From assembly GCA_947038155.1 (NCBI GenBank), contig CAMQVH010000013.1, forward strand, positions 317 to 64,316: a stretch of 64,000 nt of DNA, read 5' to 3'. Origin of the DNA: an uncultured Bacteroides sp. (GTDB lineage: Bacteria > Bacteroidota > Bacteroidia > Bacteroidales > Bacteroidaceae). How positions within the stretch are numbered: position 1 is the stretch's first letter; the number at the start of each line of letters is the position of its first letter. The notes beneath the pieces are model-generated. The model did no database searches, had not been told where the DNA came from, and saw only the letters and a list, made by a program, of their open reading frames with translations. A program made the translations under genes and the position numbers. Below, piece by piece: positions 1 through 29,991 of this stretch.

Positions 1-824
1 TTTGCCAACTTAATCAGTGCCACATCGTCCGTATCATACCGGCTAAACGTAATATAAGCATTCCCCTTACGGAAATTCTTCTCTTCCACATTCGATTCTA
101 TGGAATAAGGAAGTTCGCTCTTGACGCAATAACGCAGAAAACCATCAATGACCTGCTGCGCATGAATCGCTTCCGGACGTGCTATCAGAATCAGTTTCTC
201 ATAATTCTTCAATCTATCCTGCAATTGCAGAAGACTGCAATAAATATCATAGCCATAATCCTGATAGATGCAACTATAGTTACCACTCAATCCCTGCTGA
301 TTATAATCTATGATTATTCTCTTCTCCGCCGGAATCAGGTTCAAGACATCCGTCACATCTTCTTTCAGGAAAGTAGCTATAATATAATGTGTATAATTAC
401 CCAGATTCTCCTTGATAAGCTTTTCAAAAACCTTATAGTTATGATGATGAAAGTAAATATCAATATCCCCTACATCTTTCAAAGCATTGAAAATAGAGCG
501 ATAAATCTGTTCACGCATCACGTTCATCTTATCCAATAACAAAAACACATGATAAGAATGATTTATAGATATTTTTTTCACAAAATACCCCTTCCTGTAA
601 ATCGCTTCGATGACTCCCATCTCCAATAAGTAGTTCAGCCCCTTCAACAAAGTCTCCTTACTCATGTGCAATTGTGTCTGTAATTGGTTCAATGAAGGTA
701 TCTGGTCACCTATCTGAAGAGTCCCGTCTTCAATCAGTGAATTAATATAATCCACTAATTGAAGGTACTTCATCCGTGAAGCGGGTTTCTTCTGTTCTGT
801 TACATCAAGATTCTGGTTCTGCAT
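1..824 (-). CDS. GntR-family transcriptional regulator (N-terminal wHTH plus sugar-binding-like domain), 3' end runs off the window
   Basis: Manual translation of the minus strand from ATG at 824: MQNQNLDVTEQKKPASRMKYLQLVDYINSLIEDGTLQIGDQIPSLNQLQTQLHMSKETLLKGLNYLLEMGVIEAIYRKGYFV (GntR HTH pattern), then open to position 1. Absent from the ORF track because it has no stop in the window. Confidence 0.85.
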   Translation of the reverse strand, partial: MQNQNLDVTEQKKPASRMKYLQLVDYINSLIEDGTLQIGDQIPSLNQLQTQLHMSKETLLKGLNYLLEMGVIEAIYRKGYFVKKISINHSYHVFLLLDKMNVMREQIYRSIFNALKDVGDIDIYFHHHNYKVFEKLIKENLGNYTHYIIATFLKEDVTDVLNLIPAEKRIIIDYNQQGLSGNYSCIYQDYGYDIYCSLLQLQDRLKNYEKLILIARPEAIHAQQVIDGFLRYCVKSELPYSIESNVEEKNFRKGNAYITFSRYDTDDVALIKLA

Positions 825-852
825 TACTACCAAGAGTTAAATAAATATTTAG

Positions 853-860
853 CAAATATA
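853..860 (-). promoter_or_regulatory. Bacteroides sigma-A -7 element (TATATTTG) for the GntR gene
   Basis: Matches TAnnTTTG about 30 bp upstream of the ATG at 824. Confidence 0.55.
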
Positions 861-911
861 CTTAAATACCATGATAAAGCAATATTAATATCTCATTCAA
901 AATATCTTGAA

Positions 912-3194
912 CTATTCATAGCACTTCACCGCAAACAAAGCTGCCGGAATCATTTCTGAAGGATGCTCCAACACAATTTTAATCTCATCGGTCACCAGTT
1001 TCTCCGGAAATACAAACTCATTTATCGACTGATGGTTGTCTGTTTTCTCATAAATCAACCGGTTCTCTCCATCGTATATTTTATATTTCTCCACACAGAA
1101 AGGCATCTTATTCTCCGGATGCGTCATCTGAACCGTTTCCATCGGCTGGTCAAAATCCGTATCAAAAAAGAGAGACATCTTTCCGATATGTACAGCCGAG
1201 TCCCATTTGATGGTCAAAGCCGGAGCAGGGTCATCCAACTCTGCAACCCAAGCATTCGGCGACTGAACCGGACGGTCAATGCCATTATTAATATCTGAAA
1301 CAGAAAAAATATGGCAGTCCTTTTCCAACAGGACAGCGATATTATGCCCTCCGGGTCTGCGCTTCGGACACCAGAACTCAAATTCCTCAATGCCGATATC
1401 TTCTTTAGGAGTCTGCTTCCCAAAATTGGATACAGCCTCATTAATGGTGTTAAACACAGACAAAACTCCAGTTATCCTTTCCTGAGTATATTGCAATTGC
1501 ACCAGAGGATTTTTCTTGAAAACAAGGAAAGCATACTGTTCTTCCGGTATCACGGCTTCAAAAGTCAGCTCCAACTGTTGCCTGCCTTGGCACAAGGAGA
1601 CTGTCTTCGCTTCCAAAGTAACATCCGGAGTATGATTGAACGGTTTGCTGCTTACACGAAGCTCTACTTCCAACTCTGTCACTTCGGAAACAGCAAGTCC
1701 AACTTTCACCATTCCCAACACATCCCCTTTATGTAAAGGTATCATTTGAGCAACAGACTCATCCAAAACCTGCATCCCACCATCAGCCGGAAAACCCTTA
1801 AAACGATATTCACTGGATGCAGACAAAGTGGCTTTCGCTACCAGATTCTCCTCATCTTTTATAGCCATATCAGGGATATATTGACCCATTCTTGATAATT
1901 TCGCCTGCAATTCAGGCACTCTTCCCAAAGAATAGACTTCCCTCGGAGAGATATTCTCTTTCAGACAAATAGCCGCAGCCATCGCAACAGCCTGTGCACT
2001 GTGCGCAGAAGTAGCCATCACACGGGTCGAGCCGAAAGCGACGTGTGATGTACTTATGATTCTTCCGGCAAGGAAAAGATTGTCAATGCCCCTGCTGTAA
2101 AGACAACGATAAGGAATCTGATATACCCCTTTCGAGTGCCACTGGTTACAGGCCGACTCTTCTCCGAACACACCGGCTGCCGGATGCAAATCAATACTCC
2201 ATCCACCATAGGAAACCGCATCCTCATGATGTCTTTGCTCTATGACATCCTGCTGAACCAGCATATAGTCGCCTTCAAACCTTCTGCTCTCCCGCTTTCC
2301 AGGAATACAGCCTACCCACTCCAGTGTCATAGTCTCCGCTTCCGGATATCTGCCCGAGTTCTTGATATAATCCCAAGCACCATAAATAACTTTCCACAAT
2401 TCCCACTTAATTTGCTCCGTATCATGCACTGTGTCCAAGTCGCCTCCGTATTCAACCCACCATAGTTTACAGCCATGTTCCTTTGCATTGAAACTACGGA
2501 ACCGCGGAACAGTCTTCGTCACATCCATCGCATAAGAAGGAGCCACATATTTCACCGGATGACCGGTATCCTTTGTATAGAAGTACAGGCTGTGCCCCAA
2601 AAGCTCGCCATAATCCTCGGCCGGTGCAAACTTTTCGCCAAACTCCTCTCTGCTCTCCGCTCCCATGCGATAAGGAGCCCCAGAAAGGAAACCGACAACA
2701 CCGTCACCGGAAGCATCACAAAACAAAGGTGCAGACACTTCGTACATGGTGCTGTTCTGGCTACAGAATCCCCGGACACTTTCTATTTTATGGCTGGAAC
2801 TCTTTTTCACCTCATACACGCAGGTATTCAGCAATAAAGTTATATTTGGTTCGCTCACCACCTTGTCAAGCATGACAGAATCAAAGATTATCGGATTGCC
2901 TTCCGGGTTGCGGAACGTATTCTCCACCATAATCTCATCTATCACACCACCTTCACGTGCCCAGCGATTATTATTTCCCATGTGAGAAGTTGCTCCGAGC
3001 ATCCACAGCCTTATCTCGCTGGAACCATTTCCTCCCAGTACCGGACGATCTTGTATAAGCACCACTTTCAAGCCTTGCCGAGCCGCGGTTATGGCAGCAC
3101 AAACCCCTGAAATACCTCCGCCTACTATTACAAAATCAGCCTGAATCGTATCTGTCTTAAATATTCTCACACTATTAAACTTATCAAGTACCAT
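912..3194 (-). CDS. FAD-dependent oxidoreductase (FAD_oxidored/PF12831-like) with C-terminal beta-sandwich; no signal peptide
   Basis: Rossmann motif VIVGGGISGVCAAITAAR, LGGNGSSE, DASGDG, GKRESRRFEGDY, IPYRCLYS and STRVMAT motifs typical of this family. Confidence 0.85.
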   Translation of the reverse strand: MVLDKFNSVRIFKTDTIQADFVIVGGGISGVCAAITAARQGLKVVLIQDRPVLGGNGSSEIRLWMLGATSHMGNNNRWAREGGVIDEIMVENTFRNPEGNPIIFDSVMLDKVVSEPNITLLLNTCVYEVKKSSSHKIESVRGFCSQNSTMYEVSAPLFCDASGDGVVGFLSGAPYRMGAESREEFGEKFAPAEDYGELLGHSLYFYTKDTGHPVKYVAPSYAMDVTKTVPRFRSFNAKEHGCKLWWVEYGGDLDTVHDTEQIKWELWKVIYGAWDYIKNSGRYPEAETMTLEWVGCIPGKRESRRFEGDYMLVQQDVIEQRHHEDAVSYGGWSIDLHPAAGVFGEESACNQWHSKGVYQIPYRCLYSRGIDNLFLAGRIISTSHVAFGSTRVMATSAHSAQAVAMAAAICLKENISPREVYSLGRVPELQAKLSRMGQYIPDMAIKDEENLVAKATLSASSEYRFKGFPADGGMQVLDESVAQMIPLHKGDVLGMVKVGLAVSEVTELEVELRVSSKPFNHTPDVTLEAKTVSLCQGRQQLELTFEAVIPEEQYAFLVFKKNPLVQLQYTQERITGVLSVFNTINEAVSNFGKQTPKEDIGIEEFEFWCPKRRPGGHNIAVLLEKDCHIFSVSDINNGIDRPVQSPNAWVAELDDPAPALTIKWDSAVHIGKMSLFFDTDFDQPMETVQMTHPENKMPFCVEKYKIYDGENRLIYEKTDNHQSINEFVFPEKLVTDEIKIVLEHPSEMIPAALFAVKCYE

Positions 3195-3237
3195 CTTCTC
3201 GTATCTAATTAATTTTACTTCTATTTTAGCTCTAAAC

Positions 3238-5733
3238 CTACTTTTCTATCTTTATTACCTTACGTAACCGGATGTCATCGGACGCACTTCCAACAAGTAT
3301 TTCATAACTTCCCGCATCATAATCAAAGTCTTTCAATTCCGTTTTGTAATAGGAGAAAGCAGCCTTGTCCAAAGTTATTTCCATTTCCTGCCCGGTGTTT
3401 TTTCTGATAAAATGCTTGGCAAACCCTTTAAGCTCCTTATAAGGTCTTTCGACTTTCGGATGGATAGGGCGAACATATACCTGGGCCGTTTCCGAGCCGT
3501 CATATTTCCCTGTATTCTTTACAGTAAACCTGACCTTAACCAGCAAGTCTTTGCCTTTCTCCCTGTTTACACGCAAGTCAGAGTATTTGAACGTGGTATA
3601 AGACAATCCATAACCGAACGCAAATTGAGGTTTCGTATCACTGACATCGTAATGCCTGTAACCCATGAAAAGTCCCTCTTTATACTCTACCCGTTTATCA
3701 CCATCCGCATCATAGTAATATGGATAAGCCGGATTATCCTCCCATTTCTTTTCAAAAGAGACGGGTAACTTTCCACTGGGATTCACTTTCCCGAACAGGA
3801 TTTCAGCAACAGCCGTCCCGCCTTCCTGACCGGCATACCACAGATGCAACAAGGAAGGAACCTTATCTATCCATTTCGACATATCCACATTCCCGCCGGC
3901 ATTCAGCAGCACAACCGTATTCGGATTGGCAGCAGTGATACACTGCACTAAACTATCCTGATACTCGGGCAACTCGAAAGGCCGGTCATTACTTTCACGT
4001 TCACTGCTCTCATTAAATCCTATATTCACAATAGCCACATCGGACTTTCCGGCAATTTCCACAGCCTCATCAAAGAGTAGCTTATCCTCTCTCCATCCGA
4101 AAGAAATATCAACAGGATGCACATTAGCAAAATATTCAAGAACAACAGGATATTCCTTACCGGCTTCCATCGCCAATACAACCTCACGAGTTGTTATCCC
4201 CTGGTCTCTCCACTCATTAATCACCATTTCCGTACCGACTTTCAAACGGAACCCGTCGAACCCTCTGACTATGAACCGATAATCAGCGCTTTTCTCCGGA
4301 CGTACAACTCCACTCCAACGCATGGAACAGTGGTCATACGGAATGCCTTTATTCTCGGCAGCAATATGCCAGCCATTGCCAATATTGACAATCGTGTCTA
4401 TCACAGTTTTTGCCGGTGTACCCTTCAAACGGATATTATCAAAATATTCGGCCTTTAGTCCTTTAGTCCGGCTTCCCGCTTCTGTGTAAAAAACTGCATT
4501 GGCAACCGTTTCTGTCAAAGTAGGCACGCCGGGCGCATAAGAAATCTGAAGATCCTGTCCGACATTCTTCAACCCCTCCAATACCGAAACAGAATGGAAC
4601 GGGAATGTATAAGAACTCCCACCTCCCGATATATAAGAGTTCGCATTGGGGCCAATCACGGCAACCGACTTCACTTTTGAAGGGTTCAACGGAAGTAGCC
4701 CATTCTCATTCTTCAATAATACAACGCCTTCTCTAGCCAGTTCCAATGCCACTTTTGCCGCTTCCGGGTTATTATATGGAATAGAACTATCCAATTGCTC
4801 ATTATCAAAAAAGCCGAACCGGAACATAACTCTCAGGATTCTCTTCACTTTCTCATCAATAGTTGCTTCCTTCACTTTCCCGGCTTTTATCGCAGGAATC
4901 AGATTCTCCTTATTCATCCACTTTCCACGCGGCATCTCCAAGTCCAGACCACCATTGGCCGCACCGACAGCGTCATACGTAGCCGACCAGTCACTCATTA
5001 CAATTCCATCAAATCCCCATTGTTTTCTCAACACTTGATTATTCAAATAATCATTCTGCGTGGCATGAACCCCATTCACCGGGTTATAGCTATCCATAAC
5101 GGCGCCCGCACCCGCTTCCTGAATGGCAGCCTTATATACGGGCAGATAAATTTCATGCAACACCCGCTCGTCAATGTCACTACTTACATTGTTGCGATCC
5201 CATTCCTGGTTGTTTGCAGCATAATGTTTCAGAGTAGCCACTACCCTCTGATCCTGCAATCCTTTGACATAACCTATTGCCACCTGAGAGTTCAGGTACG
5301 GGTCTTCCGTAAAATACTCAAAGTTTCTTCCACACAAAGGAGAACGAAGAATATTCACACCGGGACCTAATAATATATGTACGCCACGCGCCCTTGAGTC
5401 TCTTCCCAATTGTTTTCCTAATTCATATGCCAGTTCCCTGTTCCAGGTCGAAGCAGTCAGCACCCCTGCCGGATAAGCTGTCGACTTACCGTCTTTATGC
5501 GTACCGACAGGCCCGTCCGTCAGTTTTATTTCGGGAACGCCCAGACGTTCGATTCCCCTTATATAAAAGCCTTTATAACCTCCTATATAATCTAGTTTTT
5601 CTTCCAATGTCATGCGGTGGAGCAAATCATTCGTCCTATCCTCCACAGAAGCTGTCTTATCTTTGTATATCTGAGCAAAGCCGCTCATAGAAAAACAACT
5701 TAAAATTCCAACGATCACTAAATGCTTCATCAT
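3238..5733 (-). CDS. GH3 beta-glycosidase with PA14 insertion and C-terminal Fn3-like domain, secreted
   Basis: GRNFEYFTEDP, KHYAAN, MSDW nucleophile motif, PA14-like GLKAEYF...SMRWSG, C-terminal KELKGF; signal peptide. Confidence 0.93.
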   Translation of the reverse strand: MMKHLVIVGILSCFSMSGFAQIYKDKTASVEDRTNDLLHRMTLEEKLDYIGGYKGFYIRGIERLGVPEIKLTDGPVGTHKDGKSTAYPAGVLTASTWNRELAYELGKQLGRDSRARGVHILLGPGVNILRSPLCGRNFEYFTEDPYLNSQVAIGYVKGLQDQRVVATLKHYAANNQEWDRNNVSSDIDERVLHEIYLPVYKAAIQEAGAGAVMDSYNPVNGVHATQNDYLNNQVLRKQWGFDGIVMSDWSATYDAVGAANGGLDLEMPRGKWMNKENLIPAIKAGKVKEATIDEKVKRILRVMFRFGFFDNEQLDSSIPYNNPEAAKVALELAREGVVLLKNENGLLPLNPSKVKSVAVIGPNANSYISGGGSSYTFPFHSVSVLEGLKNVGQDLQISYAPGVPTLTETVANAVFYTEAGSRTKGLKAEYFDNIRLKGTPAKTVIDTIVNIGNGWHIAAENKGIPYDHCSMRWSGVVRPEKSADYRFIVRGFDGFRLKVGTEMVINEWRDQGITTREVVLAMEAGKEYPVVLEYFANVHPVDISFGWREDKLLFDEAVEIAGKSDVAIVNIGFNESSERESNDRPFELPEYQDSLVQCITAANPNTVVLLNAGGNVDMSKWIDKVPSLLHLWYAGQEGGTAVAEILFGKVNPSGKLPVSFEKKWEDNPAYPYYYDADGDKRVEYKEGLFMGYRHYDVSDTKPQFAFGYGLSYTTFKYSDLRVNREKGKDLLVKVRFTVKNTGKYDGSETAQVYVRPIHPKVERPYKELKGFAKHFIRKNTGQEMEITLDKAAFSYYKTELKDFDYDAGSYEILVGSASDDIRLRKVIKIEK

Positions 5734-5749
5734 TCTATTTTACTATTTG

Positions 5750-7801
5750 TTATTTAATATATTTGGAGATAACCTTTTTCCACACAGCGTACCCTTCGGC
5801 AGTCAGATGTAGCCCATCTTCCCGATAATGCTCCGGAAACAATTCTCCGTCCGCTGTAAACATCGGGGTATATATATCAGCGTAGGCAGCATTCGTTTGT
5901 TGCTCCACAAATTCTTTTATCAAGGCATTTGTCTGCTCTATCCTTTTCTTATCCTTCAATCTCCGTACAGACGGTTTGATAGAGATAAAGACAAGCTCCG
6001 CTTCCGGCTTTTCCTTCCGGAGAATAAAGAATAGCCTCTTGATCTGAGCCAGTATTTCGTCCGGAGTCCATTTGTAGCCAATATCATTGTCCCCTTCGTA
6101 AACAAAAATCTGCTTAGGTTGATAAGGGCTTATCAGGCGGTCTTTATAATTAATCAAATCTATCGTCTTCGTGCCGGAAACACCCCGGTTAAGTACCGGC
6201 TTCCCGGGAAAATCATCCGCCAGGGATTTCCAGTTCTCCATCGTCGAGCTACCCACAAAAAGGATCAAGTCCTTTGTCGGCGGATTGACGGAATCCGCTT
6301 TCTCATAACGCCTCATCTTCTGATCCCACTTCAGTTGTTGTGCCAGTTTAGGCACTCCCTTTACGCGTTCACACGGAACAGGCTTGCCACGCAAAAGTAT
6401 CCTGCCCAAATAGATTACGGACTGGTCATACTTTTCGGGATGTGCCGTTATATCCTCCCATTGCTTACTGCCGAGTATTTTTTTCTTGTCAGCCTTCTCC
6501 GAAGAAATCCGGACAGTCACCTGATGAACACCTTTATCTAACTTAATCACGTCATATTGTCCGCGATAGCGATTGTTACACCAGGAATTAAAACGATTCA
6601 ACGTATAATTCCCGATACGGTCATTCGCTTCATACAGATGAAAACCTTTAGTACCCACCTCTTTCAACTGAACAAATTTTCCGTCAACCAGAACTTCCAC
6701 CTGTCCTACCTCCGGACCGCCAATATCAAACAATCCGAGCATATCCCCCTCAAAGCCAAAGGAAAACGACGCCCCTTCCTTACTGCCGGTCATCACTGTA
6801 TCAAACCATCCGGCAAATTTCTTTAAAGAAGGGTTCTCTGACGTATTCACTTCTTTCCATGACCTGTCAAAAGAAGCAATCTGTGAAGGAATATACATTT
6901 CGGCTTCTTCCCATTCCGAACCGATTAACGGTTCCGGAAGCCTATGTGCCTGCAAAGCACCATTTCCCTTCCGTATCTTCTCTAATCCGCGGGCAATGGC
7001 GGATGCATACAAATTTCCTCCCTCAGCGACAGGGTGAATCCCGTCATTAGAAAACAGAATCTTCCCGGCAGCCACCTCTTTATTACCTTTCCAAAGCAGC
7101 TTACCCGCCTTTTCGAGTGTTGCCGCCTCCATTCCCAAATGAATGGAAGGGAGTTGATAATGTGCGGCTATGTCTTCCAGTCCCTTAATCACCTGCGGAA
7201 TATCCCCTTTCTGATAAGTAGTAATCTGGTTCGTATAAACCGTATAAATCAAACAAATATCCGTATGAGGATTCTCTTTTATAATCTTTCGGAGCATCCC
7301 TTCCATGCCATCCGGATAACCGCCGTTTACTGCAAATTCAATAAAAATGAGATCCGGCTTGTATTGCAACACCTGTTCACGAATCCGGAAAGCGCCCAAA
7401 TCCGTCCCCGTACCGGACACCCCGGCATTAATCCACTTAAAACGGGCATTGGAAAAAGCATTTTCCATATACCGGGTGGTTTGCAAACGATAGCAATATT
7501 CTCCTTGTGTAATGCTTCCACCGATAAAGGCAACTGTGACTTCCTGTCCTTTCTTTATTTTTGAATAGAAATTGGGAAGTCCCTTTCTTACTGTACATTC
7601 TTTTTCATTATAATAACCGCCAGGTTGTATCAATGGAATTTCCTTATCCGCCGTTGTGTACACCAAAGGCGAAGCTCCTCCCTGCGAAGCGGCAATCTTG
7701 TCCAAATCAGCCCGGCTCTGTCCATAAGCGCAGGGAAGTACGGTCATTAGCGCCATTCCTGCAAGAACAGTTCCCAGTTGTCGTATTTTTATCATCTTCA
7801 T
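5750..7801 (-). CDS. Secreted two-domain SGNH/GDSL hydrolase (probable carbohydrate esterase)
   Basis: Domain 1: FIGGSIT, NAGVSGT, EFAVN, DGIHP. Domain 2: FVGSST, NRGVSG, YEGDND, DGLH. 4-bp ATGA overlap with the upstream gene. Confidence 0.85.
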   Translation of the reverse strand: MKMIKIRQLGTVLAGMALMTVLPCAYGQSRADLDKIAASQGGASPLVYTTADKEIPLIQPGGYYNEKECTVRKGLPNFYSKIKKGQEVTVAFIGGSITQGEYCYRLQTTRYMENAFSNARFKWINAGVSGTGTDLGAFRIREQVLQYKPDLIFIEFAVNGGYPDGMEGMLRKIIKENPHTDICLIYTVYTNQITTYQKGDIPQVIKGLEDIAAHYQLPSIHLGMEAATLEKAGKLLWKGNKEVAAGKILFSNDGIHPVAEGGNLYASAIARGLEKIRKGNGALQAHRLPEPLIGSEWEEAEMYIPSQIASFDRSWKEVNTSENPSLKKFAGWFDTVMTGSKEGASFSFGFEGDMLGLFDIGGPEVGQVEVLVDGKFVQLKEVGTKGFHLYEANDRIGNYTLNRFNSWCNNRYRGQYDVIKLDKGVHQVTVRISSEKADKKKILGSKQWEDITAHPEKYDQSVIYLGRILLRGKPVPCERVKGVPKLAQQLKWDQKMRRYEKADSVNPPTKDLILFVGSSTMENWKSLADDFPGKPVLNRGVSGTKTIDLINYKDRLISPYQPKQIFVYEGDNDIGYKWTPDEILAQIKRLFFILRKEKPEAELVFISIKPSVRRLKDKKRIEQTNALIKEFVEQQTNAAYADIYTPMFTADGELFPEHYREDGLHLTAEGYAVWKKVISKYIK

Positions 7802-11226: not shown

Positions 11227-11229
11227 ATC

Positions 11230-13851: not shown

Positions 13852-13860
13852 TTTTATCAG

Positions 13861-15564: not shown

Positions 15565-15595
15565 GTTCGATTATTTTAAAAAGGATAAAAATCAA

Positions 15596-17203: not shown

Positions 17204-17227
17204 ATATAACGTTTTGATTTTAAAGGT

Positions 17228-20200
17228 TTAAAAAGAAATGTCAACTCCTAAAGTGATAGTTCTCGGCCTTGGATAAGGAGACCAGTCGAAAGAAGGCGTC
17301 AGTGCCGTGGGACGGGTGGAAACCTCCGGATCCGGTCCGGAATATTTGGTCCAGGTAATCAGGTTCTGCGCAGAAGCATATACTCTCAACGACTTGATAT
17401 TTATCTTTTTCAGCCATGCATTCGGCAGCCTGTATCCTAAAGCAACCGTTTTCAGGCGCAGGAAAGAACCGTCTTCAATGGTACGCGATGAATAAACAGC
17501 CGGTCCCTGTCCACCTATCCGGTAGAGTTCGTTCGTCTGGTTCTCGGGAGTCCAGCGGTTGGCAAAAGAAGCAAACATATTCAGTGAAGTACGGGCATTC
17601 GGGTCGCCACCTTCAAACTCAATGCGGTTAGCATTCAGCACATCGCCTCCGTAGCTCCATTGGAAGAATACATTCAGGTCGAAGTTCTTGTACTGGAAGT
17701 TATTGCCGAAACCACCGATATGTTTCGGGTTCGGGTTGCCGATAATAGTCAGGTCATAGTCGTTCACCACCCCATCGCGATTGATATCCTTGAACTTGAT
17801 ATCTCCCGGCTGAATCTTCTCACGTGCATTTCCATTATTGGGGACACCGTCTTTCAATATATACGATTCTCCTACCTTATCGAAATCGGTATATTGGTAA
17901 ACTCCGTCAAAAATATGCCCGTAGAACATGGCGATCGGATGTCCCGGAATGGCGATATACGGATAAGCGTTGTTGAAGTTACCCCAGTTCACACGGCTTG
18001 CCAGGCTCGGCTCGTCATCATTCAGTGACAACACCTTGTTGCGGTTGAACGAGATATTGAAGCTGGAAGTCCAGGAAAATTCCTTCGTCTGTATGTTTTT
18101 AGTGTCAATAGTAAACTCAAGTCCTGAGTTGGAAACCGATCCTACATTCCGATAGGCGGACAAGAACCCCATGCTCGGTGCCAACGTAGCATTCAACAGC
18201 AAATCTTTCGTTTTCTTATAGTAATAATCTGCCGTGAACGAAATCCGGCTATCCAGGAATGACATATCCAATCCGATGTTGGTCTGCACGGTAGTCTCCC
18301 ATTTCAGTTTGGGATTTCCCAGCGTTTTCGGCACTACCCCTTTACCCGGCGTGTTGCCTGTGCTATATCCGGAATCTGCCGTTATCTGCAAGGCTGTCAA
18401 TGCTGCATAATCCGTCACGCGGTTATTACCCGTCGTACCGATACCGGCTCTCAGCTTACCGCTGCTGATCCATTTGATATTTTTTATGAATTTCTCTTCA
18501 CCAAATCCCCACGCGGCAGAAGCAGATGGGAAATAAGCCCAACGGTTATCTTTCGGGAATTTCGACGAACCATCGGCACGGAATGAAACGGTCAGCAGAT
18601 ATTTGGACTTATAATTATAGTCTGCTCTTCCCAAATAAGAAACCAAACCGTTGTCCGTCTTGCTGATAGTGGCGGAAGTCAGTTCGCCTTCATCCAGTCC
18701 GGCAATTCCCAATGCCTCATTAGGGACATTGATTGCTCTGATTTCATCAATAAACGTACTATTATCCTGCACGGTAAAGCCACCCAGAACTTTCAGACGG
18801 TGTCCCTTCTTTAAAGGAACATTATAAGTCAGTGTATTTTCATTCAACAGGCTTGTCCGCTCCGTGTTGGTGATCCAACCGTTCACCTTATTGTTGGTAT
18901 GACGATGGCCTCCTCGCGAATTAGAGTTATAGAAGACTTCTTTGCGTTGGTGTATCTTGTTATATCCACCCGTAATCTTCAGGGTCAGATTTTTCAATAT
19001 TTTATATTCCAAATAAGCGTTGCCAATAAAATTGTAAGTGAACAACGGATTATACTCATTCTCTGCAGCCATTAAGGGATTGATACGAAGATCGGTAGTC
19101 GGGTCAGTTGATTCATCATACAGGTCATTCAGCAAGTCACCGTCATTGACACCTGCCACCGGGCGATACCCCCACAGAGCATACATCAAGCTAGCCGTAG
19201 GACTGGTCTGCGATTCAGATACAATAGTACCATATTTCTTTGAATATGTATAGTTGGCATTAATTCCCACTTTAATCTTCTTATTAATAGTCTGATCGAG
19301 CACGAAACGCCCCTGATATTTTTTGTAACCGCTATTCAGCATAATACCTTGCTGATCTACCAATGACCCTGAAACAGAGTATCTCGTCTTTTCAGTACCA
19401 CCCCTGACAGCTATATTGTGGCTATGCACCAAAGCATCCCTATACACCTTGTCCTGCCAGTTGATACCTTCGATGTTGCGATAATCTTCCAATGTCCTTT
19501 CGCCAGCCAAATAACGCTTACTGTAAACATTGTAGTCCGCTTCCAACTGATAGCGTACAAACTCATAAGGATCAAGCATTTCCTGCTGCTTGATAATTTG
19601 CTGTACACCTACCCAGCCATTGTATGTCACGGTAGGCGAACTAACCTTTCCTTTCTTTGTAGTCACCAGAATTACCCCGTTCGCACCTCTTGCACCATAG
19701 ATAGCCGTAGCCGACGCATCTTTCAAGATTTCGATAGACTCTATTTCTTCGGGATTCAGCATATTTCCCACCGCCATTTCCAGCGGAAAGCCATCCACTA
19801 CATACAAGGGAGAATTATCCTGAGTTACCGAGTTATTACCGCGAATGACAATCTGCAAATCACTGCCCGGCTGCCCGTCGGACGAAGTTACCTGTACACC
19901 CGCTACACGCCCTGCAAGACTTTCTTCAAAGTTAAAAACCGGCGCTTTACGCATATCTTGCACATTCGCCTTTGCTATAGCCCCTGTCAAATCCTTACGA
20001 GGTCCGGAACCATATGCAGTAATTACCACTTCCTCCAGTAATTCAGAAACGGCACGCAAGCGAACAGTCAGTTTCTTTCCATCCGCTACCGTCACCGTCT
20101 GCTTCTCATATCCGATAAAAGAAACCTCCAGATTTATGTTATCGCCATCCACCCGGATAGAAAAGTTCCCATCCAAGTCACTGATAGTACCCACACTTTT

Positions 20201-20422
20201 CCCGGCGACTGCTATAGAAGCCCCGATAATTGGTTCTCCTGTTTCAAAATCAATCACCGAGCCAACTACCGTTCGCGTTTTTGCCTGTTGGGCAACCTCC
20301 ACACTGTTTATTTTTGAAACATCTTCTGCCGAATATACTACAGAAGAAAAGGAAATAGATAAATACACAAGACTACAGCATCTAATGTACCACTTCGCTT
20401 TTGAAATAACTGCGTTCTTCAT
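17228..20422 (-). CDS. susC: SusC/RagA TonB-dependent transporter
   Basis: PLYVVDG, IESIEILKDASATAIYGARGANGVILVTTKKG, LKWETT, C-terminal YPRPRTITLGVDISF. Confidence 0.96.
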   Translation of the reverse strand: MKNAVISKAKWYIRCCSLVYLSISFSSVVYSAEDVSKINSVEVAQQAKTRTVVGSVIDFETGEPIIGASIAVAGKSVGTISDLDGNFSIRVDGDNINLEVSFIGYEKQTVTVADGKKLTVRLRAVSELLEEVVITAYGSGPRKDLTGAIAKANVQDMRKAPVFNFEESLAGRVAGVQVTSSDGQPGSDLQIVIRGNNSVTQDNSPLYVVDGFPLEMAVGNMLNPEEIESIEILKDASATAIYGARGANGVILVTTKKGKVSSPTVTYNGWVGVQQIIKQQEMLDPYEFVRYQLEADYNVYSKRYLAGERTLEDYRNIEGINWQDKVYRDALVHSHNIAVRGGTEKTRYSVSGSLVDQQGIMLNSGYKKYQGRFVLDQTINKKIKVGINANYTYSKKYGTIVSESQTSPTASLMYALWGYRPVAGVNDGDLLNDLYDESTDPTTDLRINPLMAAENEYNPLFTYNFIGNAYLEYKILKNLTLKITGGYNKIHQRKEVFYNSNSRGGHRHTNNKVNGWITNTERTSLLNENTLTYNVPLKKGHRLKVLGGFTVQDNSTFIDEIRAINVPNEALGIAGLDEGELTSATISKTDNGLVSYLGRADYNYKSKYLLTVSFRADGSSKFPKDNRWAYFPSASAAWGFGEEKFIKNIKWISSGKLRAGIGTTGNNRVTDYAALTALQITADSGYSTGNTPGKGVVPKTLGNPKLKWETTVQTNIGLDMSFLDSRISFTADYYYKKTKDLLLNATLAPSMGFLSAYRNVGSVSNSGLEFTIDTKNIQTKEFSWTSSFNISFNRNKVLSLNDDEPSLASRVNWGNFNNAYPYIAIPGHPIAMFYGHIFDGVYQYTDFDKVGESYILKDGVPNNGNAREKIQPGDIKFKDINRDGVVNDYDLTIIGNPNPKHIGGFGNNFQYKNFDLNVFFQWSYGGDVLNANRIEFEGGDPNARTSLNMFASFANRWTPENQTNELYRIGGQGPAVYSSRTIEDGSFLRLKTVALGYRLPNAWLKKINIKSLRVYASAQNLITWTKYSGPDPEVSTRPTALTPSFDWSPYPRPRTITLGVDISF

Positions 20423-20513
20423 GGTGCAATACTTAATTTCTCGTTAACAATTTAAATGGAATATCTAAGTTTTCAACGCTAGCAACTGGTCTACTCTGGT
20501 CTGCTAGACCTTG

Positions 20514-20544
20514 CAAACATAGTGATTATTTATTAAACTCCAAA
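20514..20544 (-). promoter_or_regulatory. Sigma-A promoter of the PUL1 operon
   Basis: Minus strand TTTG (20544-20541), 19-bp spacer, TATGTTTG (20521-20514). Confidence 0.7.
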
Positions 20545-20640
20545 TAAATTTAAAGAAAAAAGCATAATCATTCCTGCAGGATTCTCCAGAAAGCCCATAA
20601 ACAAAGGGAAGTGCACTTTTATTTTTTTTTCATAAGCAGG

Positions 20641-20691
20641 AAAAAGAAAAACGGGACACACCTCTTTTATATAGAAAAAGGCTATGTCCCG
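20641..20691 (-). terminator. Probable intrinsic terminator after lacI
   Basis: CGGGACA (20652-20658) pairs with TGTCCCG (20685-20691); T-rich run follows on the minus strand. Confidence 0.5.
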
Positions 20692-20721
20692 CAAATTATA
20701 CCTTCCGAGAAGGTCAAAGTT

Positions 20722-21759
20722 TCAACTCGTCTTTCTAAGAGACGATTCCCTGATATTCAGTTTTGCATCCAGGATGATTGATTTCGAGGGCATTTTATCG
20801 TCATTATTGATATTATGCTTGATTTGCTCCAATAACAACTGTGCTGCATTCCTCCCCATTTCAAAAGTCGGCTGCTCCACACTAGTCAAGTTAGGTTCCA
20901 CAATAAATGCTTCCTTTGATTCGGAGAAACCGACTACTGCTATATCCTCCGGGATTCTAATCCTGTTTTTTTGAAGAGTTTTCATCGCCCCTATCGCCAC
21001 CGGATCATTCACTGCAAAGATTCCATCCGGCAATTTTTCCATTTCAAGAATCTGGTGGGCAGCCATTATCCCTTTTTCCATCATTATTCCACAATCGATA
21101 ATCAAAGCCTCGTCAACCGGCAATCCATACTTTCGCAAGGCATCCATATAGCCGCTCTTACGTTTCTGCGCAATGAGCAAATCTTCAGAACCCGCCAAAT
21201 GGACGATCCGCGTGCATCCTTGCCGTATCAAATGCTCGACCGCAGAAAAAGCCCACTTATAATCATCAATAACCACATAGGGAGCATTCAATTCCGCACA
21301 AATCCGATTGAAGAAAACCACGGGGAAATGATTCCGAATCAAATCAGAGAAGTAACTGATGTTTTCTGATTCCTGGGTAACCGAAATCAGAAAGCCATCC
21401 ACCATCTGCGCTTCCAACGCCTGCATATTCCGCAATTCATTCTCATGCGACTCATTAGACTGCATAATCAACACATGATATCCTTCAGGATTGAGCACAC
21501 TCTGAATGCCCATAATTACCTCGGAAAAGAAGGAATTGACAAATTCAGGTACAATCACTCCGATAAACATAGACTGGCTCTGTTTCAGACTCAACGAAAT
21601 CGGATTCGGCTTATAATTCCACTTTTCCGCAAGCTCCAGAACCGCTTTGCGCGTTTCCGGGTTGACATCCCATTTATCACACAAAGCTCTGGAAACAGTA
21701 GAAGTCGAAATCTTCAGCTCCTTGGCTAAATCCTTGATAGTCACTCTTAATTTACTCAT
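20722..21759 (-). CDS. LacI-family transcriptional regulator
   Basis: VTIKDLAKELKISTSTVSRAL HTH, YKPN hinge, IPEDIAVVGFS and LTSVEQP effector-domain motifs. Confidence 0.95.
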   Translation of the reverse strand: MSKLRVTIKDLAKELKISTSTVSRALCDKWDVNPETRKAVLELAEKWNYKPNPISLSLKQSQSMFIGVIVPEFVNSFFSEVIMGIQSVLNPEGYHVLIMQSNESHENELRNMQALEAQMVDGFLISVTQESENISYFSDLIRNHFPVVFFNRICAELNAPYVVIDDYKWAFSAVEHLIRQGCTRIVHLAGSEDLLIAQKRKSGYMDALRKYGLPVDEALIIDCGIMMEKGIMAAHQILEMEKLPDGIFAVNDPVAIGAMKTLQKNRIRIPEDIAVVGFSESKEAFIVEPNLTSVEQPTFEMGRNAAQLLLEQIKHNINNDDKMPSKSIILDAKLNIRESSLRKTS

Positions 21760-21841
21760 AGTCTAATCCCCTTTCTTAAAAATTGCCCGAATATAATCAA
21801 ATTCCCGTGATTGAGATGTTAAAACTCCAAGAGTTTAATTT

Positions 21842-21867
21842 CGGTAACGTTTGCGGTAACGTTCCCG
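21842..21867. promoter_or_regulatory. Two overlapping LacI-type operators
   Basis: CGGTAACGTTTGCG (21842-21855) and CGGTAACGTTCCCG (21854-21867), each with the AACGTT core, between divergent lacI and symporter. Confidence 0.7.
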
Positions 21868-21911
21868 ATGATTTATATTCCGAATTGCTTGTTTATCTGT
21901 AGAATCGAAAA

Positions 21912-21919
21912 TATATTTG
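21912..21919 (+). promoter_or_regulatory. Sigma-A -7 element (TATATTTG) for the symporter
   Basis: TAnnTTTG about 50 bp upstream of ATG 21971. Confidence 0.6.
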
Positions 21920-21970
21920 CCGTCGGCTTTGAGGTTTTTCAAGCCTGTTTTGTTAACTAAATCATTTGAT

Positions 21971-23650
21971 ATGACTACTCTTGACATCATTACTATCGTA
22001 CTATTTTCCCTTGGAGTTGTCCTCGTCGGACTGGCTTTCTCCAGAAAAGGTAAAAGCATGCAATCTTTCTTTGCCGCCAACGGAACCATGCCGTGGTATA
22101 TGAGCGGACTGTCCCTGTTTATGGGATTTTTCTCTGCCGGCACATTCGTCGTATGGGGTTCCATTGCTTACTCCATGGGCTGGGTTTCAATTACCATCCA
22201 ATGGACAATGGCTGTCGCCGGTCTCATTGTCGGAATGCTTATTGCCCCCAAATGGCATAAAACGGGAACGCTCACGGCAGCAGAATACATACACAAAAGA
22301 TTAGGAAAGTCGACACAGAAGATATACACTTACTTGTTCTTGTCTATCTCCGTGTTTCTTACGGCCTCTTTCCTCTATCCGGTTGCTAAAATATTAGAAG
22401 TTTCCACCGGACTACCTTTAAATACCTGCATTTTACTATTAGGCGGACTATGTATTTTGTATGTCTCCGCAGGCGGATTATGGGCTGTTATCTCCACAGA
22501 CGTACTTCAGTTCGTCATCCTGACAGCGGCAGTTATTATCGTAGTTCCTTTATCTTTCGACAAAATCAATGGAGTGACCGCCTTGATAGAGCAGGTGCCC
22601 GACACATTCTATAATCTTCTGAACGATGAATATACTTTTGGCTTCCTGATAGCCTTCGGTGTCTACAACACAATATTCCTGGGCGGCAACTGGGCATACG
22701 TGCAGCGCTATACCTGTGTCAAGACACAAAATGACTCCAGGAAAGTAGGTTATCTGTTCGGCGCTTTATACATCATCAGCCCGGTGTTATGGATGCTCCC
22801 ACCAATGGTTTACAGGGTATATGATCCTTCTCTCTCATTGCTTGACGCAGAAGGGGCATACCTGATGATGTGTAAGGAAGTTCTTCCGAACGGACTTTTG
22901 GGATTAATGATCGGCGGTATGATTTTCGCAACTACCAGTGCGCTGAACTCAAAACTGAATATTGCTTCGGGAGTCATCACCAATGATATATTCAAAAATC
23001 TAAGACCGAAAAGTTCCGACCGTACTCTGATGTATGTTGCAAGAATCTCGACGATTCTTTTCGGAGCACTCAGTATACTGATAGCTATGCTTATTCCTAA
23101 AATGGGGGGAGTTGTAAATGTGGTTATCAGCTTGGCGGCATTGACAGGTGTTCCTTTATATCTGCCCATCATCTGGACGCTATTTTCCAAAAGGCAGACT
23201 TCGGCTTCGAATATCACCACTACTTTATTGAGCCTGGTTGTCAATGGTTTATTCAAATTCATCACTCCGCTGATGGGCTTCTCCCTCAATCGTGCCGAGG
23301 AGATGATTCTCGGGGTTACTTTCCCGATTGTATGCCTGGCAATCTTTGAGATATATTATAAGGTAAAGAACAAGGAGTCTGAAAAGTATCAATCTTACTT
23401 GGTCTGGAATAAAGAAAACAATGCCCGGAAATTAAAAGAAATCGAAGAAAATGAATCGGCAGAGAAAGCGGGAAATAATTTCAGCAAACGGGTGATCGGT
23501 TATGGTATTTTCGCTTCCGGAGCCGGTATTGCGATATTGGGCGGCATGGCGGATAACGGACAGAGACTTATCATCACAACAGGCGTCGTTTTTGCCCTGC
23601 TCGGGTTACTGATGACAAGGAATCCAAAAAGGCAAGAAAAGAAAATATAG
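21971..23650 (+). CDS. Sodium:solute symporter (SSS family)
   Basis: Many TM helices; SFFAANGTMPWYMSGLS, GGLWAVISTDVLQF, YVQRY, GLLGLMIGGMIFATTS. Start set at the ATG at 21971 rather than the upstream TTG. Confidence 0.9.
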   Translation: MTTLDIITIVLFSLGVVLVGLAFSRKGKSMQSFFAANGTMPWYMSGLSLFMGFFSAGTFVVWGSIAYSMGWVSITIQWTMAVAGLIVGMLIAPKWHKTGTLTAAEYIHKRLGKSTQKIYTYLFLSISVFLTASFLYPVAKILEVSTGLPLNTCILLLGGLCILYVSAGGLWAVISTDVLQFVILTAAVIIVVPLSFDKINGVTALIEQVPDTFYNLLNDEYTFGFLIAFGVYNTIFLGGNWAYVQRYTCVKTQNDSRKVGYLFGALYIISPVLWMLPPMVYRVYDPSLSLLDAEGAYLMMCKEVLPNGLLGLMIGGMIFATTSALNSKLNIASGVITNDIFKNLRPKSSDRTLMYVARISTILFGALSILIAMLIPKMGGVVNVVISLAALTGVPLYLPIIWTLFSKRQTSASNITTTLLSLVVNGLFKFITPLMGFSLNRAEEMILGVTFPIVCLAIFEIYYKVKNKESEKYQSYLVWNKENNARKLKEIEENESAEKAGNNFSKRVIGYGIFASGAGIAILGGMADNGQRLIITTGVVFALLGLLMTRNPKRQEKKI

Positions 23651-24443: not shown

Positions 24444-24506
24444 AAATACATTGTTTTTTTAAACCTATTAAAATACTTTTTTATCTCTATTTTGACAATA
24501 CAGTTT

Positions 24507-25214: not shown

Positions 25215-25249
25215 AATAACAGTAAGGAATTAATAAGGAGACATTCTTT

Positions 25250-29002: not shown

Positions 29003-29043
29003 AATAAAGAAAAGCCTAGGTCAATCACATAAATCTGATTCAA

Positions 29044-29979: not shown

Positions 29980-29991
29980 ATTTAATGAGCC

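Follow-up and report, generated by a model that had tools for sequence, protein, structure and literature searches.

A conserved Bacteroidota PUL with six-hairpin proteins, an SGLT-like symporter and a PF12831 flavoprotein, a candidate system for oligosaccharide scavenging

The locus described here lies at the beginning of the window (the whole stretch of 64,000 nucleotides that was analysed) and probably feeds on an acylated oligosaccharide by an undescribed route, because its six-hairpin enzyme candidates, symporter and flavoprotein match no characterised system. With moderate confidence we consider it an oligosaccharide-scavenging PUL of a conserved and uncharacterised type, in which import is followed by periplasmic trimming, symport and flavin-dependent conversion. 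PULs are the main glycan-harvesting route of gut and soil Bacteroidota, and loci without a recognisable depolymerase mark gaps in our knowledge of enzymes.

The genes from susC to the flavoprotein form one tightly packed operon on the minus strand behind a Bacteroides-type promoter. It starts with a susC-like TonB-dependent transporter (17228..20422, 1064 aa, with Plug and CarboxypepD_reg Pfam domains), followed after only 24 nt by a susD-like lipoprotein (15596..17203, 535 aa, SusD_RagB and SusD-like_3 domains, lipobox ...ATSC by inspection), and this adjacent pair is the hallmark of a PUL. The next genes code for a candidate surface glycan-binding lipoprotein with two DUF5017 repeats (13861..15564, 567 aa), for protein A, a secreted six-hairpin enzyme candidate (11230..13851, 873 aa), and for protein B, a secreted paralog of A with an N-terminal CBM35/CBM6-like module (7798..11226, 1142 aa). 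The last three are a tandem SGNH/GDSL esterase (5750..7801, 683 aa, Lipase_GDSL_2 in two stretches), a GH3 enzyme with a PA14 insert and an Fn3-like tail, probably a beta-glucosidase (3238..5733, 831 aa), and a leaderless, cytoplasmic PF12831 flavoprotein, FAD760 (912..3194, 760 aa). Besides these co-located CAZymes the locus has dedicated regulators, both on the minus strand: an AraR-type hybrid of a GntR wHTH and a periplasmic-binding-protein-like domain (3..833, cut by the window edge), and a LacI-family protein (20722..21759, 345 aa, LacI HTH and Peripla_BP domains). An SSF (SGLT-like) sodium:sugar symporter (PF00474) is encoded on the plus strand at 21968..23650.

Spacing between operon genes ranges from a 4-nt overlap to 78 nt. 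The flavoprotein gene begins 43 nt after GH3 with no terminator in that gap, and no intergenic gap of the operon holds a terminator-like hairpin; such matches over positions 1-20000 occur at chance level, all inside coding sequence. A terminator-like hairpin with a T-run does follow lacI (20652..20691, minus strand). It is the inverted repeat I1, after which GTTTTTCTTTTT comes next on the minus strand, and it is kept in five Bacteroides loci. The 64 kb contain only four matches to the promoter consensus TTTG-N19-TAnnTTTG, and one of them (TTTG-N19-TATGTTTG, 20544-20514, minus strand) precedes the susC ATG by 92 nt. This promoter and the pentamer-repeat operator candidate that follows it (GTCTAGCAGACCAGAGTAGACCAG), together at 20480..20544 on the minus strand, are likewise kept in five Bacteroides loci. 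The original prediction had described an uncharacterised PUL made of a contiguous gene set from susC to an FAD oxidoreductase, accompanied by LacI, symporter and GntR-type genes, with one clear promoter and no recognisable backbone-cleaving enzyme. Every gene that it named is present, one promoter consensus precedes susC, no recognisable endo-GH or PL occurs among the window genes (N-termini read by eye), and we found in the literature no characterised PUL that matches this co-conserved locus.

Localisation was judged from N-termini inspected by eye, with no predictor used. The DUF5017 lipoprotein (PF16409 at 295 bits in two stretches) has a lipobox, LVSC, followed by acidic VEDE, which resembles a surface-export signal. 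The signal peptides of A, B and the esterase are plain, with no lipobox in A and B, and the GH3 N-terminus shows a possible lipobox with the acidic export signal absent. Since no enzyme bears a surface-export signal, scavenging of oligosaccharides is the most likely role of the locus, not cleavage of a polymer backbone. The earlier idea that the two unknown proteins cleave the backbone fits poorly with their ordinary signal peptides, which are not of the surface-lipoprotein kind, and with the tethering of A to an inner-membrane symporter in other taxa. Of all the genes, that of the DUF5017 lipoprotein is the most variable between Bacteroides loci (52-99%). For susC, identity is 97-99% among close Bacteroides loci and 51-69% in metagenomic ones.

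How widely has this gene set been maintained? The synteny check across Bacteroidota suggested with the original prediction showed that the locus is one co-conserved unit recurring in many lineages. Synteny is full in five Bacteroides genomes. Some 30 metagenomic loci (44-63% identity) keep the genes together in shuffled order. Among 22 long metagenomic loci (at least 22 kb, 44-79% identity to B), susD was present in all, susC, A and the esterase in 21 each, a third paralog of A and B in 14 and GH3 in nine. The flavoprotein (scored within a 10-kb flank) was found in 13 of them, the symporter in 12, and one or the other in 18. The flavoprotein is thus not obligatory, and in one Bacteroidales locus (L006) the gene after GH3 is a different one. 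Among 151 sampled genomes of another order 13 carry A, and each of these also carries the flavoprotein, within 7.5 kb of A in 12; the core there is LacI / susC-susD-A-SSF-GH2-FAD760. This smaller core (LacI, SusCD, the 873-aa protein, symporter, GH2 and flavoprotein) recurs in two soil Bacteroidota families. The gene set was seen in Bacteroides, other Bacteroidales, Chitinophagaceae and Sphingobacteriaceae, from rhizosphere-type and gut settings. The 90% clusters of A and B have 1035 and 1410 members, and the closest Bacteroides versions occur in more than 1000 assemblies. Related loci carry GUS-like GH2, GH92, GH97 and GH28, and soil loci mostly retain only the N-terminal type of esterase.

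The esterase was expected to be double, and it indeed consists of two intact SGNH domains, with Ser and Asp-x-x-His blocks in each half by inspection. Residues 77-352 are homologous to the acetyl-mannan 2-O-esterase RiCE17 (6hfz residues 22-286, phmmer E 3e-19; GGSIT and DGIHP blocks are present), including part of its appended beta-sandwich, and residues 507-682 to the sialate O-acetylesterases EstA and NanS (6njc, 7pzg, E about 1e-15). This similarity is distant, so that specificity is not transferable. In the mannan loci of Roseburia intestinalis RiCE17 and RiCE2 also act as two complementary SGNH esterases on one glycan, but here both domains are fused in a single protein. The GH3 protein has PF00933 (151 bits) and PF01915 (197 bits) in addition to PA14 and Fn3-like domains, retains the nucleophile motif SDW (...IVMSDWSATY...), and is closest among solved structures to beta-glucosidases (7ms2, E 6e-152).

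A and B are paralogs outside the known families and, by their AF2 models, six-hairpin proteins, with an (alpha/alpha)6 barrel between two beta-sandwiches as in the GH127/GH146 beta-L-arabinofuranosidases (DUF1680), GH88/105, GH76 and PL27. In the model of A (pLDDT 86) the predicted beta-sandwiches span residues 28-333 and 765-873 and the barrel 343-745; its top structural matches are generic six-hairpin folds (Z 19-22, about 10% identity), and Pfam and NCBIfam gave no family-level match. B is related to A by BLASTP (22% identity across 735 aa, E 3e-27) and by hhalign (E 7e-45), and both share the motifs GL(S/G)FE(H/Q) and HH. The model of B has pLDDT 82, its residues 28-160 match CBM35/6/36 modules (Z 12-14, rmsd 2.2-2.9 A), and no sequence relative of B was found in the PDB. 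Both proteins are probably periplasmic, exo-acting enzymes on imported oligosaccharides. They could instead be lyases, isomerases or binding proteins and not hydrolases; AGE-type isomerases and epimerases are among the top fold matches.

Two particular families were considered for this pair. PF07944 (GH127) is matched by B at 18.4 bits, below the cut-off of 24.9, over 76 of 376 positions, and by A not at all; hhalign aligned A with GH127 at 91% probability over 133 columns only, covering the first barrel helices. We rejected GH127/GH146, as no full-length match exists and the Glu-x-Cys and Cys-Cys motifs (zinc/nucleophile), invariant as E-T-C and C-C in nine Bacteroidales GH127 sequences, have no counterpart. 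The barrel of family B is devoid of invariant Cys, and family A has only C572, outside the aligned motif region. PF07470 (GH88) matches A with a score equal to the cut-off (26.6 bits), but this match takes in just profile positions 34-106 of 352; the GH88/GH105 fold gives Z 18.5-18.8 at 13% identity.

The original prediction of a cytoplasmic FAD oxidoreductase is borne out by FAD760, whose start coincides with the Rossmann motif (VIVGGGISG), without any leader, here and in eight orthologs. It matches the complete PF12831 profile (330 bits over residues 20-433, profile positions 1-416 of 416) and has about 320 C-terminal residues without domain assignment; against solved structures the Rossmann motif alone matches, even by profile search. 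Its subfamily numbers more than 8000 relatives at E <= 1e-30, all labelled just "FAD-dependent oxidoreductase", and no activity for the 760-aa PF12831 subfamily was found in the literature. Orthologs at 50-62% identity always adjoin an SSF or MFS transporter, including those without A. Contexts in other genomes are diverse (fucosidases, sulfatases, GH30, GH43), so that the substrate may differ between loci. The symporter (PF00474, 133 bits) belongs with the sugar symporters, its closest solved relatives being vSGLT and SGLT1/2 (E about 4e-27), then the sialic-acid transporter SiaT (1e-21). Its listed TTG start at 21917 overlaps a promoter-like box, and orthologs begin at the ATG (21968). In six protein clusters (1420-1447 aa) the symporter is fused N-terminally to A, whose signal peptide comes after a positively charged loop and acts as a last membrane helix. 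Together with the leaderless flavoprotein, A and the symporter form a conserved trio, physically joined in part in some taxa, and this agrees with the earlier suggestion that an unusual sugar is imported and catabolised.

The whole pathway may be pictured as follows. SusC, SusD and the DUF5017 lipoprotein would capture and import an acylated oligosaccharide, with no surface endo-enzyme encoded. In the periplasm the two-domain esterase would strip acyl groups and GH3 would take off beta-glucosyl residues, a role that GH97, GH2 or GH92 may fill in related loci. A and B, elsewhere with the third paralog, would take off residues beyond the reach of ordinary exo-glycosidases and so set free a distinctive monosaccharide, which the symporter would move into the cytoplasm. 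There the flavoprotein would turn it into an ordinary metabolite in one flavin-dependent step; no further catabolic genes are linked to the locus. Our preferred guess for this step is that an ether or ketal substituent such as O-methyl or pyruvyl is removed oxidatively, or alternatively that the sugar ring undergoes C-H oxidation; that flavin chemistry could act on ethers or ketals is a conjecture without homology support. Marine porphyran PULs use P450-dependent demethylation of 6-O-methyl-galactose in the cytoplasm after import, and FAD/NAD glycoside 3-dehydrogenases process glycosides oxidatively. The role proposed for the flavoprotein is similar, in that a redox enzyme linked to the PUL would process a sugar which hydrolases by themselves could not channel into central metabolism, but PF12831 is unrelated to P450s, GMC oxidoreductases and Gfo/Idh/MocA enzymes, and an O2-dependent monooxygenase is unlikely in an anaerobic host.

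More tentatively, we propose that A, B and the third paralog represent a new glycan-active six-hairpin family and the 760-aa PF12831 protein an undescribed flavin-dependent step of sugar catabolism, which together with the SGLT-like symporter would make up an "uncap, import, unmask" module. If so, this module would open to Bacteroidota oligosaccharides of modified sugars that are beyond classical glycosidases and pathways. Solving the locus would probably bring a further CAZyme family and a first function for a very large flavoprotein subfamily, and reveal a glycan or sugar modification scavenged by gut Bacteroides; the enzyme-transporter fusion and two predicted operators make the question directly testable.

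What could the substrate be? The esterases, the CBM35-like module and the GH2, GH97 and GH92 of related loci suit bacterial capsule or exopolysaccharide and plant glycans alike. One candidate, rather unlikely in itself, is oligosaccharides cut by other community members from acylated, capped bacterial exopolysaccharides (xanthan-, succinoglycan-, gellan- or colanic-acid-like), from which A and B would take off capped terminal or uronic residues, leaving a modified hexose (e.g. pyruvylated mannose, glucose or galactose) to the flavoprotein. Such a substrate is consistent with two esterase domains of different types, one of them CE17-like and in this way linked to mannose O-acetyl, with the beta-glucosidase-like GH3, with the GUS-like GH2, GH92 and GH97 of related loci, and with the occurrence of the locus in both rhizosphere-type Chitinophagaceae/Sphingobacteriaceae and gut Bacteroides. 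The CBM35-like module of B matches xanthan-binding and xanthan-lyase modules (7ehg, Z 13.1; 6f2p, Z 12.0), though these are two among many matches to generic jelly rolls. Xanthan lyases release pyruvylated mannose, a sugar to which the xanthan literature that we found assigns no catabolic enzyme, but the literature also yielded no precedent for flavin-dependent depyruvylation.

The nearest comparison is the xanthan-oligosaccharide PUL of Bacteroides intestinalis, which has no role in cleavage of the native polymer and lives on oligosaccharides released by another organism (Ostrowski et al., bioRxiv 10.1101/2021.06.02.446819). Like that PUL, which has esterase activity and a cellobiose-active GH3, the window locus has SusC/D, a predicted esterase, a GH3 and no surface endo-enzyme. 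The genes of this sole characterised Bacteroides PUL for xanthan oligosaccharides, GH88, GH92, GH5, a PL-CE fusion and a hybrid two-component sensor (10.1101/2021.06.02.446819), were all undetected among the window genes, which also lack a recognised lyase or alpha-mannosidase, and identity of the two loci was rejected. The window locus differs in its two six-hairpin unknowns, PF12831 flavoprotein, SSF symporter and LacI and GntR-hybrid regulators. The exopolysaccharide proposal is a specific version of our general explanation and lies near the idea of the original prediction.

A plant cell-wall or gum glycan with many uronic acids or unusual caps (arabinogalactan-protein/gum arabic, rhamnogalacturonan) has a slim chance of being the substrate. 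A and B would then be GH127-, GH88- or PL27-like enzymes on beta-L-arabinofuranosyl, rhamnosyl-glucuronyl or unsaturated uronyl ends, and the flavoprotein would process a uronate-derived or O-methylated sugar such as 4-O-methyl-glucuronate. The weak Pfam and hhalign matches given above point this way, as do PF07944 in about one third of A-family cluster members, the likeness of the CBM35-like module to uronate-binding CBM35s (2vzp, 2w46, 4qb1), and GUS-like GH2, GH97 and GH28 in related loci. The top Foldseek match is the PL27 lyase BACCELL_00875, but Foldseek TM-scores reach 0.29-0.35 only, and the GH127 signature residues are neither aligned nor conserved in A and B. Moreover, a beta-glucosidase-like GH3 with a CE17-like esterase is atypical of arabinogalactan-protein and rhamnogalacturonan loci, and GH43, GH105, GH145 and PL genes are absent here.

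Acetylated beta-mannan or glucomannan oligosaccharides, deacetylated by the esterases and relieved of glucose by GH3, with A and B as novel mannoside-active enzymes, are very unlikely. The RiCE17 homology would fit, and so would the combination of GH3 with an esterase pair, which is known from mannan loci of Roseburia and Faecalibacterium. A also has mannose isomerase, cellobiose 2-epimerase and GH76 as its best VIA matches (Z 21-22), and there is a weak phmmer match to the GH76 protein BT2949 (E 3e-4), but six-hairpin matches are as good for unrelated families. GH26, GH5, GH113, GH130 and epimerase genes, which mark all characterised mannan loci including that of B. cellulosilyticus, are missing here, and the flavoprotein and dedicated symporter would be left unexplained.

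It is likewise very unlikely that the flavoprotein, symporter and regulators are a separate small-molecule uptake module, a mere neighbour of the glycan operon with no common pathway: flavoprotein-transporter pairs without A or B in several genomes, long loci without the flavoprotein, and a promoter and LacI site of the symporter distinct from the susC control region would suit it, but the presence of the flavoprotein in all A-bearing genomes of one order, the direct SSF-A fusions, the terminator-free junction with GH3 and the persistent linkage of the shuffled gene set argue against it.

Control of the proposed scavenging locus appears to be divided between its two regulators. The GntR-type gene is a 344-aa ORF in the full contig, with a GntR domain and a weak Peripla_BP_3 match. 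Its orthologs (50-83%) lie downstream of the flavoprotein in one locus (L086) and divergently from susC in soil metagenome loci. In distant loci, each of the 11 GntR-susC intergenic regions has CAGACCAGAC repeats directly behind a TAnnTTTG box. Position and conservation suggest these CCAGN repeats as the candidate operator through which the hybrid would regulate the susC operon. AraR-type GntR/LacI-hybrids likewise join a GntR wHTH to a sugar-binding domain, but the candidate site here is a set of pentamer direct repeats and not a simple palindrome. The LacI protein has orthologs (41-50%) in soil core loci and metagenome loci, and LacI repressors of sugar operons have CG-centred palindromic operators. 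Two adjacent candidates of this kind (TTTCGGTAACGTTTGCGGTAACGTTCCCGA, 21839..21868, plus strand) are the only matches to GGKAACGTTYCC in the 64 kb and are kept in five Bacteroides loci; they stand beside the symporter only, and no LacI-type site was found at susC. The same two kinds of evidence make CG palindromes the candidate LacI operator, and LacI would regulate the symporter via palindromes of the GGGAACGTTCCC type. In soil loci tandem palindromes TTGGGAACATTCCCAA fill the LacI intergenic region, facing susC in two of them (G441, G411), and another (G460) has a close copy of the LacI-type site of the window.

All genes of the original prediction were recovered by our ORF map and domain scans. 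On the minus strand lie susC (20422-17228), susD (17203-15596), a lipoprotein carrying a pair of DUF5017 repeats (15564-13861), an SGNH/GDSL esterase with two domains (7801-5750), a GH3 that has a PA14 insert and an Fn3-like tail (5733-3238), and a 760-aa PF12831 flavoprotein (3194-912). Between the lipoprotein and the esterase the ORF map places two large proteins on the same strand, A (873 aa, 13851-11230) and B (1142 aa, 11226-7798). A GntR-type gene (833-3, minus strand) is cut by the window edge; it codes for 344 aa in the contig, where the full ORF has a weak match to a periplasmic-binding-protein-like C-terminal domain. The LacI gene (21759-20722, minus strand) lies upstream of susC in the same direction, and the SSF symporter gene diverges from it, its real start being most likely ATG 21968, as in orthologs. 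N-termini were read by inspection. On this reading SusD is a lipoprotein, and so is the DUF5017 protein, in which acidic residues follow the Cys; A, B and the esterase each begin with an ordinary signal peptide. The flavoprotein lacks a leader, and eight orthologs likewise start at the Rossmann motif.

The gaps within the operon range from a 4-nt overlap to 78 nt, and no terminator-like hairpin was found in any of them. Generic sigma-70 promoter and terminator scans gave matches at chance level. Of the four matches in the 64 kb to the Bacteroides promoter consensus TTTG-N19-TAnnTTTG, one lies on the minus strand at 20544-20514 and ends 92 nt short of the susC ATG; a hairpin with a T-run stands between this promoter and lacI. 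The stretch up to the next locus (24009-26053) contains genes with no apparent link to the PUL: a DUF6078 gene, one for a ComF-like phosphoribosyltransferase that has a double zinc ribbon, and one of the inositol-monophosphatase family. From 28079-31170 onward there are two neighbouring PfkB (ribokinase-like) genes and then an IPT/TIG lipoprotein, an arrangement consistent with a locus for ribose utilisation.

The nearest loci belong to Bacteroides sp. f07 (99% aa identity), B. congonensis (93%), Bacteroides sp. KFT8 and two Bacteroides MAGs. Genome size among relatives in the same GTDB genus is 6-6.8 Mb. In all five Bacteroides loci the order symporter / LacI-susC-susD-DUF5017 lipoprotein-A-B-esterase-GH3-flavoprotein is identical. 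The distribution is patchy. A turned up in 2 of the 401 Bacteroidota genomes sampled. No copy was found in 200 further genomes from the window's own family, and in another order 13 of 151 genomes had it, mostly within two families. B was not found in the same 151-genome sample of this soil order at E 1e-100, a result that does not in itself show absence. Named homologs come mainly from Chitinophagaceae and Sphingobacteriaceae, and also from Dysgonomonas. The operon (2001-20000) has a G+C content of 44-47.5% against 37-43% in the flanking sequence. Horizontal acquisition would be compatible with both this contrast and the patchy distribution.

Scanning metagenomes with the B alignment yielded 57 loci, 34 of which were analyzed (44-79% identity), and the gene set recurs among them. 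In the 22 loci for which 22 kb or more of sequence was available, susD was present in all 22, and susC, A and the esterase in 21 each. A third six-hairpin paralog was found in 14, the flavoprotein in 13, the symporter in 12 (one or other of these last two in 18), the GntR-hybrid regulator (a GntR winged helix-turn-helix joined to a sugar-binding-type domain) in 12, GH3 in 9 and LacI in 7. Additional CAZymes were GH97 (nine loci), GH2 (two) and DUF4886 (three), with GH92 and GH28 in one locus. The order of genes varies by lineage, for example B'-LacI-symporter-flavoprotein-susC-susD-x-A-B-esterase-GH3, where B' is a second B-type gene. Such shuffling indicates that the linkage is kept by selection and not by recent common descent. 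A smaller version, the soil core locus, has the arrangement LacI / susC-susD-A-symporter-GH2-flavoprotein in two soil families; some of these loci add a secreted CBM35-PF12831 protein and ApbE. An ortholog of the 760-aa flavoprotein was present in all 13 A-bearing genomes of the 151-genome sample and lay at most 7.5 kb from A in 12 of them. The predicted locus is real and better supported than it was in the original prediction: its genes are co-conserved across lineages, some taxa have an enzyme-transporter fusion, and the two candidate operators are conserved.

Two regulators appear to act on the locus. The lacI-symporter intergenic region has two adjacent candidate sites, TTTCGGTAACGTTTGCGGTAACGTTCCCGA, at 21839-21868; the pattern GGKAACGTTYCC matches only these two sites in the window, and the sites are kept in five Bacteroides loci. 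In soil core loci the lacI-adjacent intergenic region has tandem perfect palindromes, TTGGGAACATTCCCAA and TTGGGAATGTTCCCAA. The gene that this region faces is susC in genomes G441 and G411, and in G501 it is a sulfatase gene. Genome G460 has ATCGGCAACGTATTCGCAAACGTTCCCGAT, which is nearly identical to the window's version. The LacI orthologs are 41-50% identical, and we assign the TTTCGGTAACGTTTGCGGTAACGTTCCCGA sites and the soil palindromes to LacI as candidate operators. In the window, the -7 box of the susC promoter is immediately followed by GTCTAGCAGACCAGAGTAGACCAG. In distant loci all 11 GntR-susC intergenic regions have a TAnnTTTG box followed by ACCAGTCCAG(TCCAG)ACCAGAC, with the core CAGACCAGAC in all 11. 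The GntR-hybrid is 50-83% identical across these loci, where it is divergent from susC; in Bacteroides it lies downstream of the flavoprotein. The CCAGN pentamer repeats are assigned to the GntR-hybrid as its candidate operator. With sites for both regulators, uptake and degradation would be under the control of one sensor and sugar import under that of the other.

What kind of enzymes are A and B? They are paralogs (BLASTP 22% identity over 735 residues, E 3e-27; profile-profile E 7e-45). AlphaFold models built on 33-sequence alignments were confident, with pLDDT values of 86 for A and 82 for B. In the model of A an (alpha/alpha)6 barrel (343-745) is flanked by two beta-sandwiches (28-333 and 765-873). 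The model of B has the same build plus an N-terminal CBM35/CBM6-like jelly roll and extra C-terminal sandwiches. Residues 28-160 of B superpose on such jelly rolls with Z 12-14 and rmsd 2.2-2.9 A, and phmmer found no match for this module in the PDB. Neither protein has a sequence relative in the PDB or an NCBIfam match, and fold searches (Foldseek, VIA) returned only generic six-hairpin, mutarotase-like and CBM35-like matches. The barrel of A is about equally like mannose isomerase, cellobiose 2-epimerase, GH76 and GH88 (Z 19-22, about 10% identity), and the best Foldseek match, PL27 lyase BACCELL_00875, had a TM-score of 0.29-0.35.

Membership in GH127 was tested because about one third of A-family members show weak matches to PF07944. 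The A profile aligns with GH127 over 133 columns, covering the early barrel helices only. Nine Bacteroidales GH127 sequences have invariant E-T-C and C-C motifs; these are absent from the barrels of family B, which has no invariant Cys, and of family A, which has a single one elsewhere, so that GH127 is excluded for both. The NCBI name given to A homologs, glycerophosphoryl diester phosphodiesterase, has no backing in Pfam, NCBIfam or fold and is treated here as a propagated misnomer. Invariant positions common to A and B are GL(S/G)FE(H/Q), H721/H722 (H884/H885 in B), R694 (R850) and a PVLG loop. We read the two proteins as a candidate new glycan-active family, and hydrolase, lyase and isomerase activities are all possible. 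Three metagenome contigs, each represented by a pair of our loci (L111/L118, L124/L110, L129/L109), belong to a single lineage with two B-type genes per locus. In many soil loci a third, more distant paralog (25-28% identity to B) lies between the esterase or GH97 and the flavoprotein. Hence the six-hairpin family has diversified inside the locus.

In some taxa A is fused to the symporter. We found 41 such sequences, from several sources, in six 90% clusters; the protein is 1420-1447 aa long, with the symporter N-terminal and A C-terminal. The junction has a positively charged RAARKVK stretch and then a hydrophobic, signal-peptide-like segment ending AEA-TAQ. A hydropathy count of the symporter helices was crude and too noisy for topology, and only this charged loop and hydrophobic segment were used; they indicate that the A domain would be exported and would stay attached to the symporter in the periplasm. 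Of all the evidence, the fusion argues most strongly that the product of A may be the cargo of the symporter. The original prediction that A and B cleave the backbone fits poorly with the ordinary signal peptides of A and B and with the tethering of A elsewhere; both are probably periplasmic, exo-acting enzymes rather than backbone cleavers.

The remaining enzymes have recognizable relatives. The GH3 is nearest to beta-glucosidases (7ms2, E 6e-152; K. marxianus BglI, which also has PA14, E 3e-123) and keeps the SDW nucleophile motif. Both esterase halves keep the Ser and Asp-x-x-His blocks; residues 507-682 are homologous to the sialate O-acetylesterases EstA and NanS, and residues 77-352 to RiCE17, a 2-O-acetyl-mannan esterase (E 3e-19). 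The symporter is closest to vSGLT and SGLT1/2, which makes a monosaccharide-type cargo likely. The GH2 of the soil core loci is nearest to gut beta-glucuronidases and beta-galacturonidases, and a regular-expression look for the GUS motif in these proteins gave nothing interpretable. The rival candidate substrates are, in this order, fragments of bacterial exopolysaccharides, uronic or capped plant glycans, and acetylated mannans; the characterised mannan loci differ from the window locus, and identity with the B. cellulosilyticus mannan locus was rejected.

The evidence supports a model in which acylated oligosaccharides would be imported and degraded in the periplasm by exo-acting enzymes, with dedicated import of one distinctive sugar and its flavin-dependent conversion as the final steps. 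The missing backbone-cleaving enzyme would be best explained if the locus needs none. The B. intestinalis xanthan-oligosaccharide PUL also works without its own backbone cleavage, but its gene content is unlike that of the window locus, and the gene list rules out identity between them. The locus is a PUL with an unassigned flavoenzyme step and with enzyme families that are probably new.

The PF12831 match covers residues 20-433 of the flavoprotein, and about 320 further residues have no assigned domain. Against solved structures, a sequence search and a nine-sequence profile matched the Rossmann motif only. More than 8000 homologs at E <= 1e-30 are all named simply FAD-dependent oxidoreductase, and comparable 760-aa clusters occur in Bacillota, Actinomycetota, Pseudomonadota and Verrucomicrobiota. 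Orthologs without A adjoin an SSF or MFS transporter and usually also a regulator, in loci that carry GH2, GH29, GH43, GH95, GH97, GH30, a SASA esterase or sulfatases. No linked kinase, aldolase or dehydrogenase was seen in any flavoprotein locus examined, so single-step conversion to an ordinary metabolite is the simplest reading. Our conjecture is that it removes an O-alkyl or ketal substituent in an O2-independent, dehydrogenase-type reaction, or else oxidises a ring C-H; O2-independent chemistry is favoured because the host is an anaerobe. Literature searches gave no characterisation of PF12831/FAD_oxidored PUL flavoproteins, DUF5017 or CE17 in Bacteroides, and no flavin-dependent pyruvyl-ketal removal.

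Secreted relatives of the flavoprotein were also detected. Two soil core loci (L009:14931-17833 in genome G371 and L045:15087-18111 in G460) code for a secreted PF12831 flavoprotein that shares homology at its N-terminus with the CBM35-like module of B (31-33% over 144-164 aa), and the gene directly after it is an ApbE flavin transferase. Such an arrangement points to a flavoenzyme of the periplasm or cell surface that is covalently flavinylated and acts on the same glycan. In G501 a secreted 670-aa PF12831 protein with a C-terminal Golvesin_C domain (L042:4899-6911) adjoins a sulfatase and the A-symporter-GH2-flavoprotein core. The window's own genome has a second full PF12831 gene on another contig (G000:C64:9456-10793; 631-aa frame, 320 bits).
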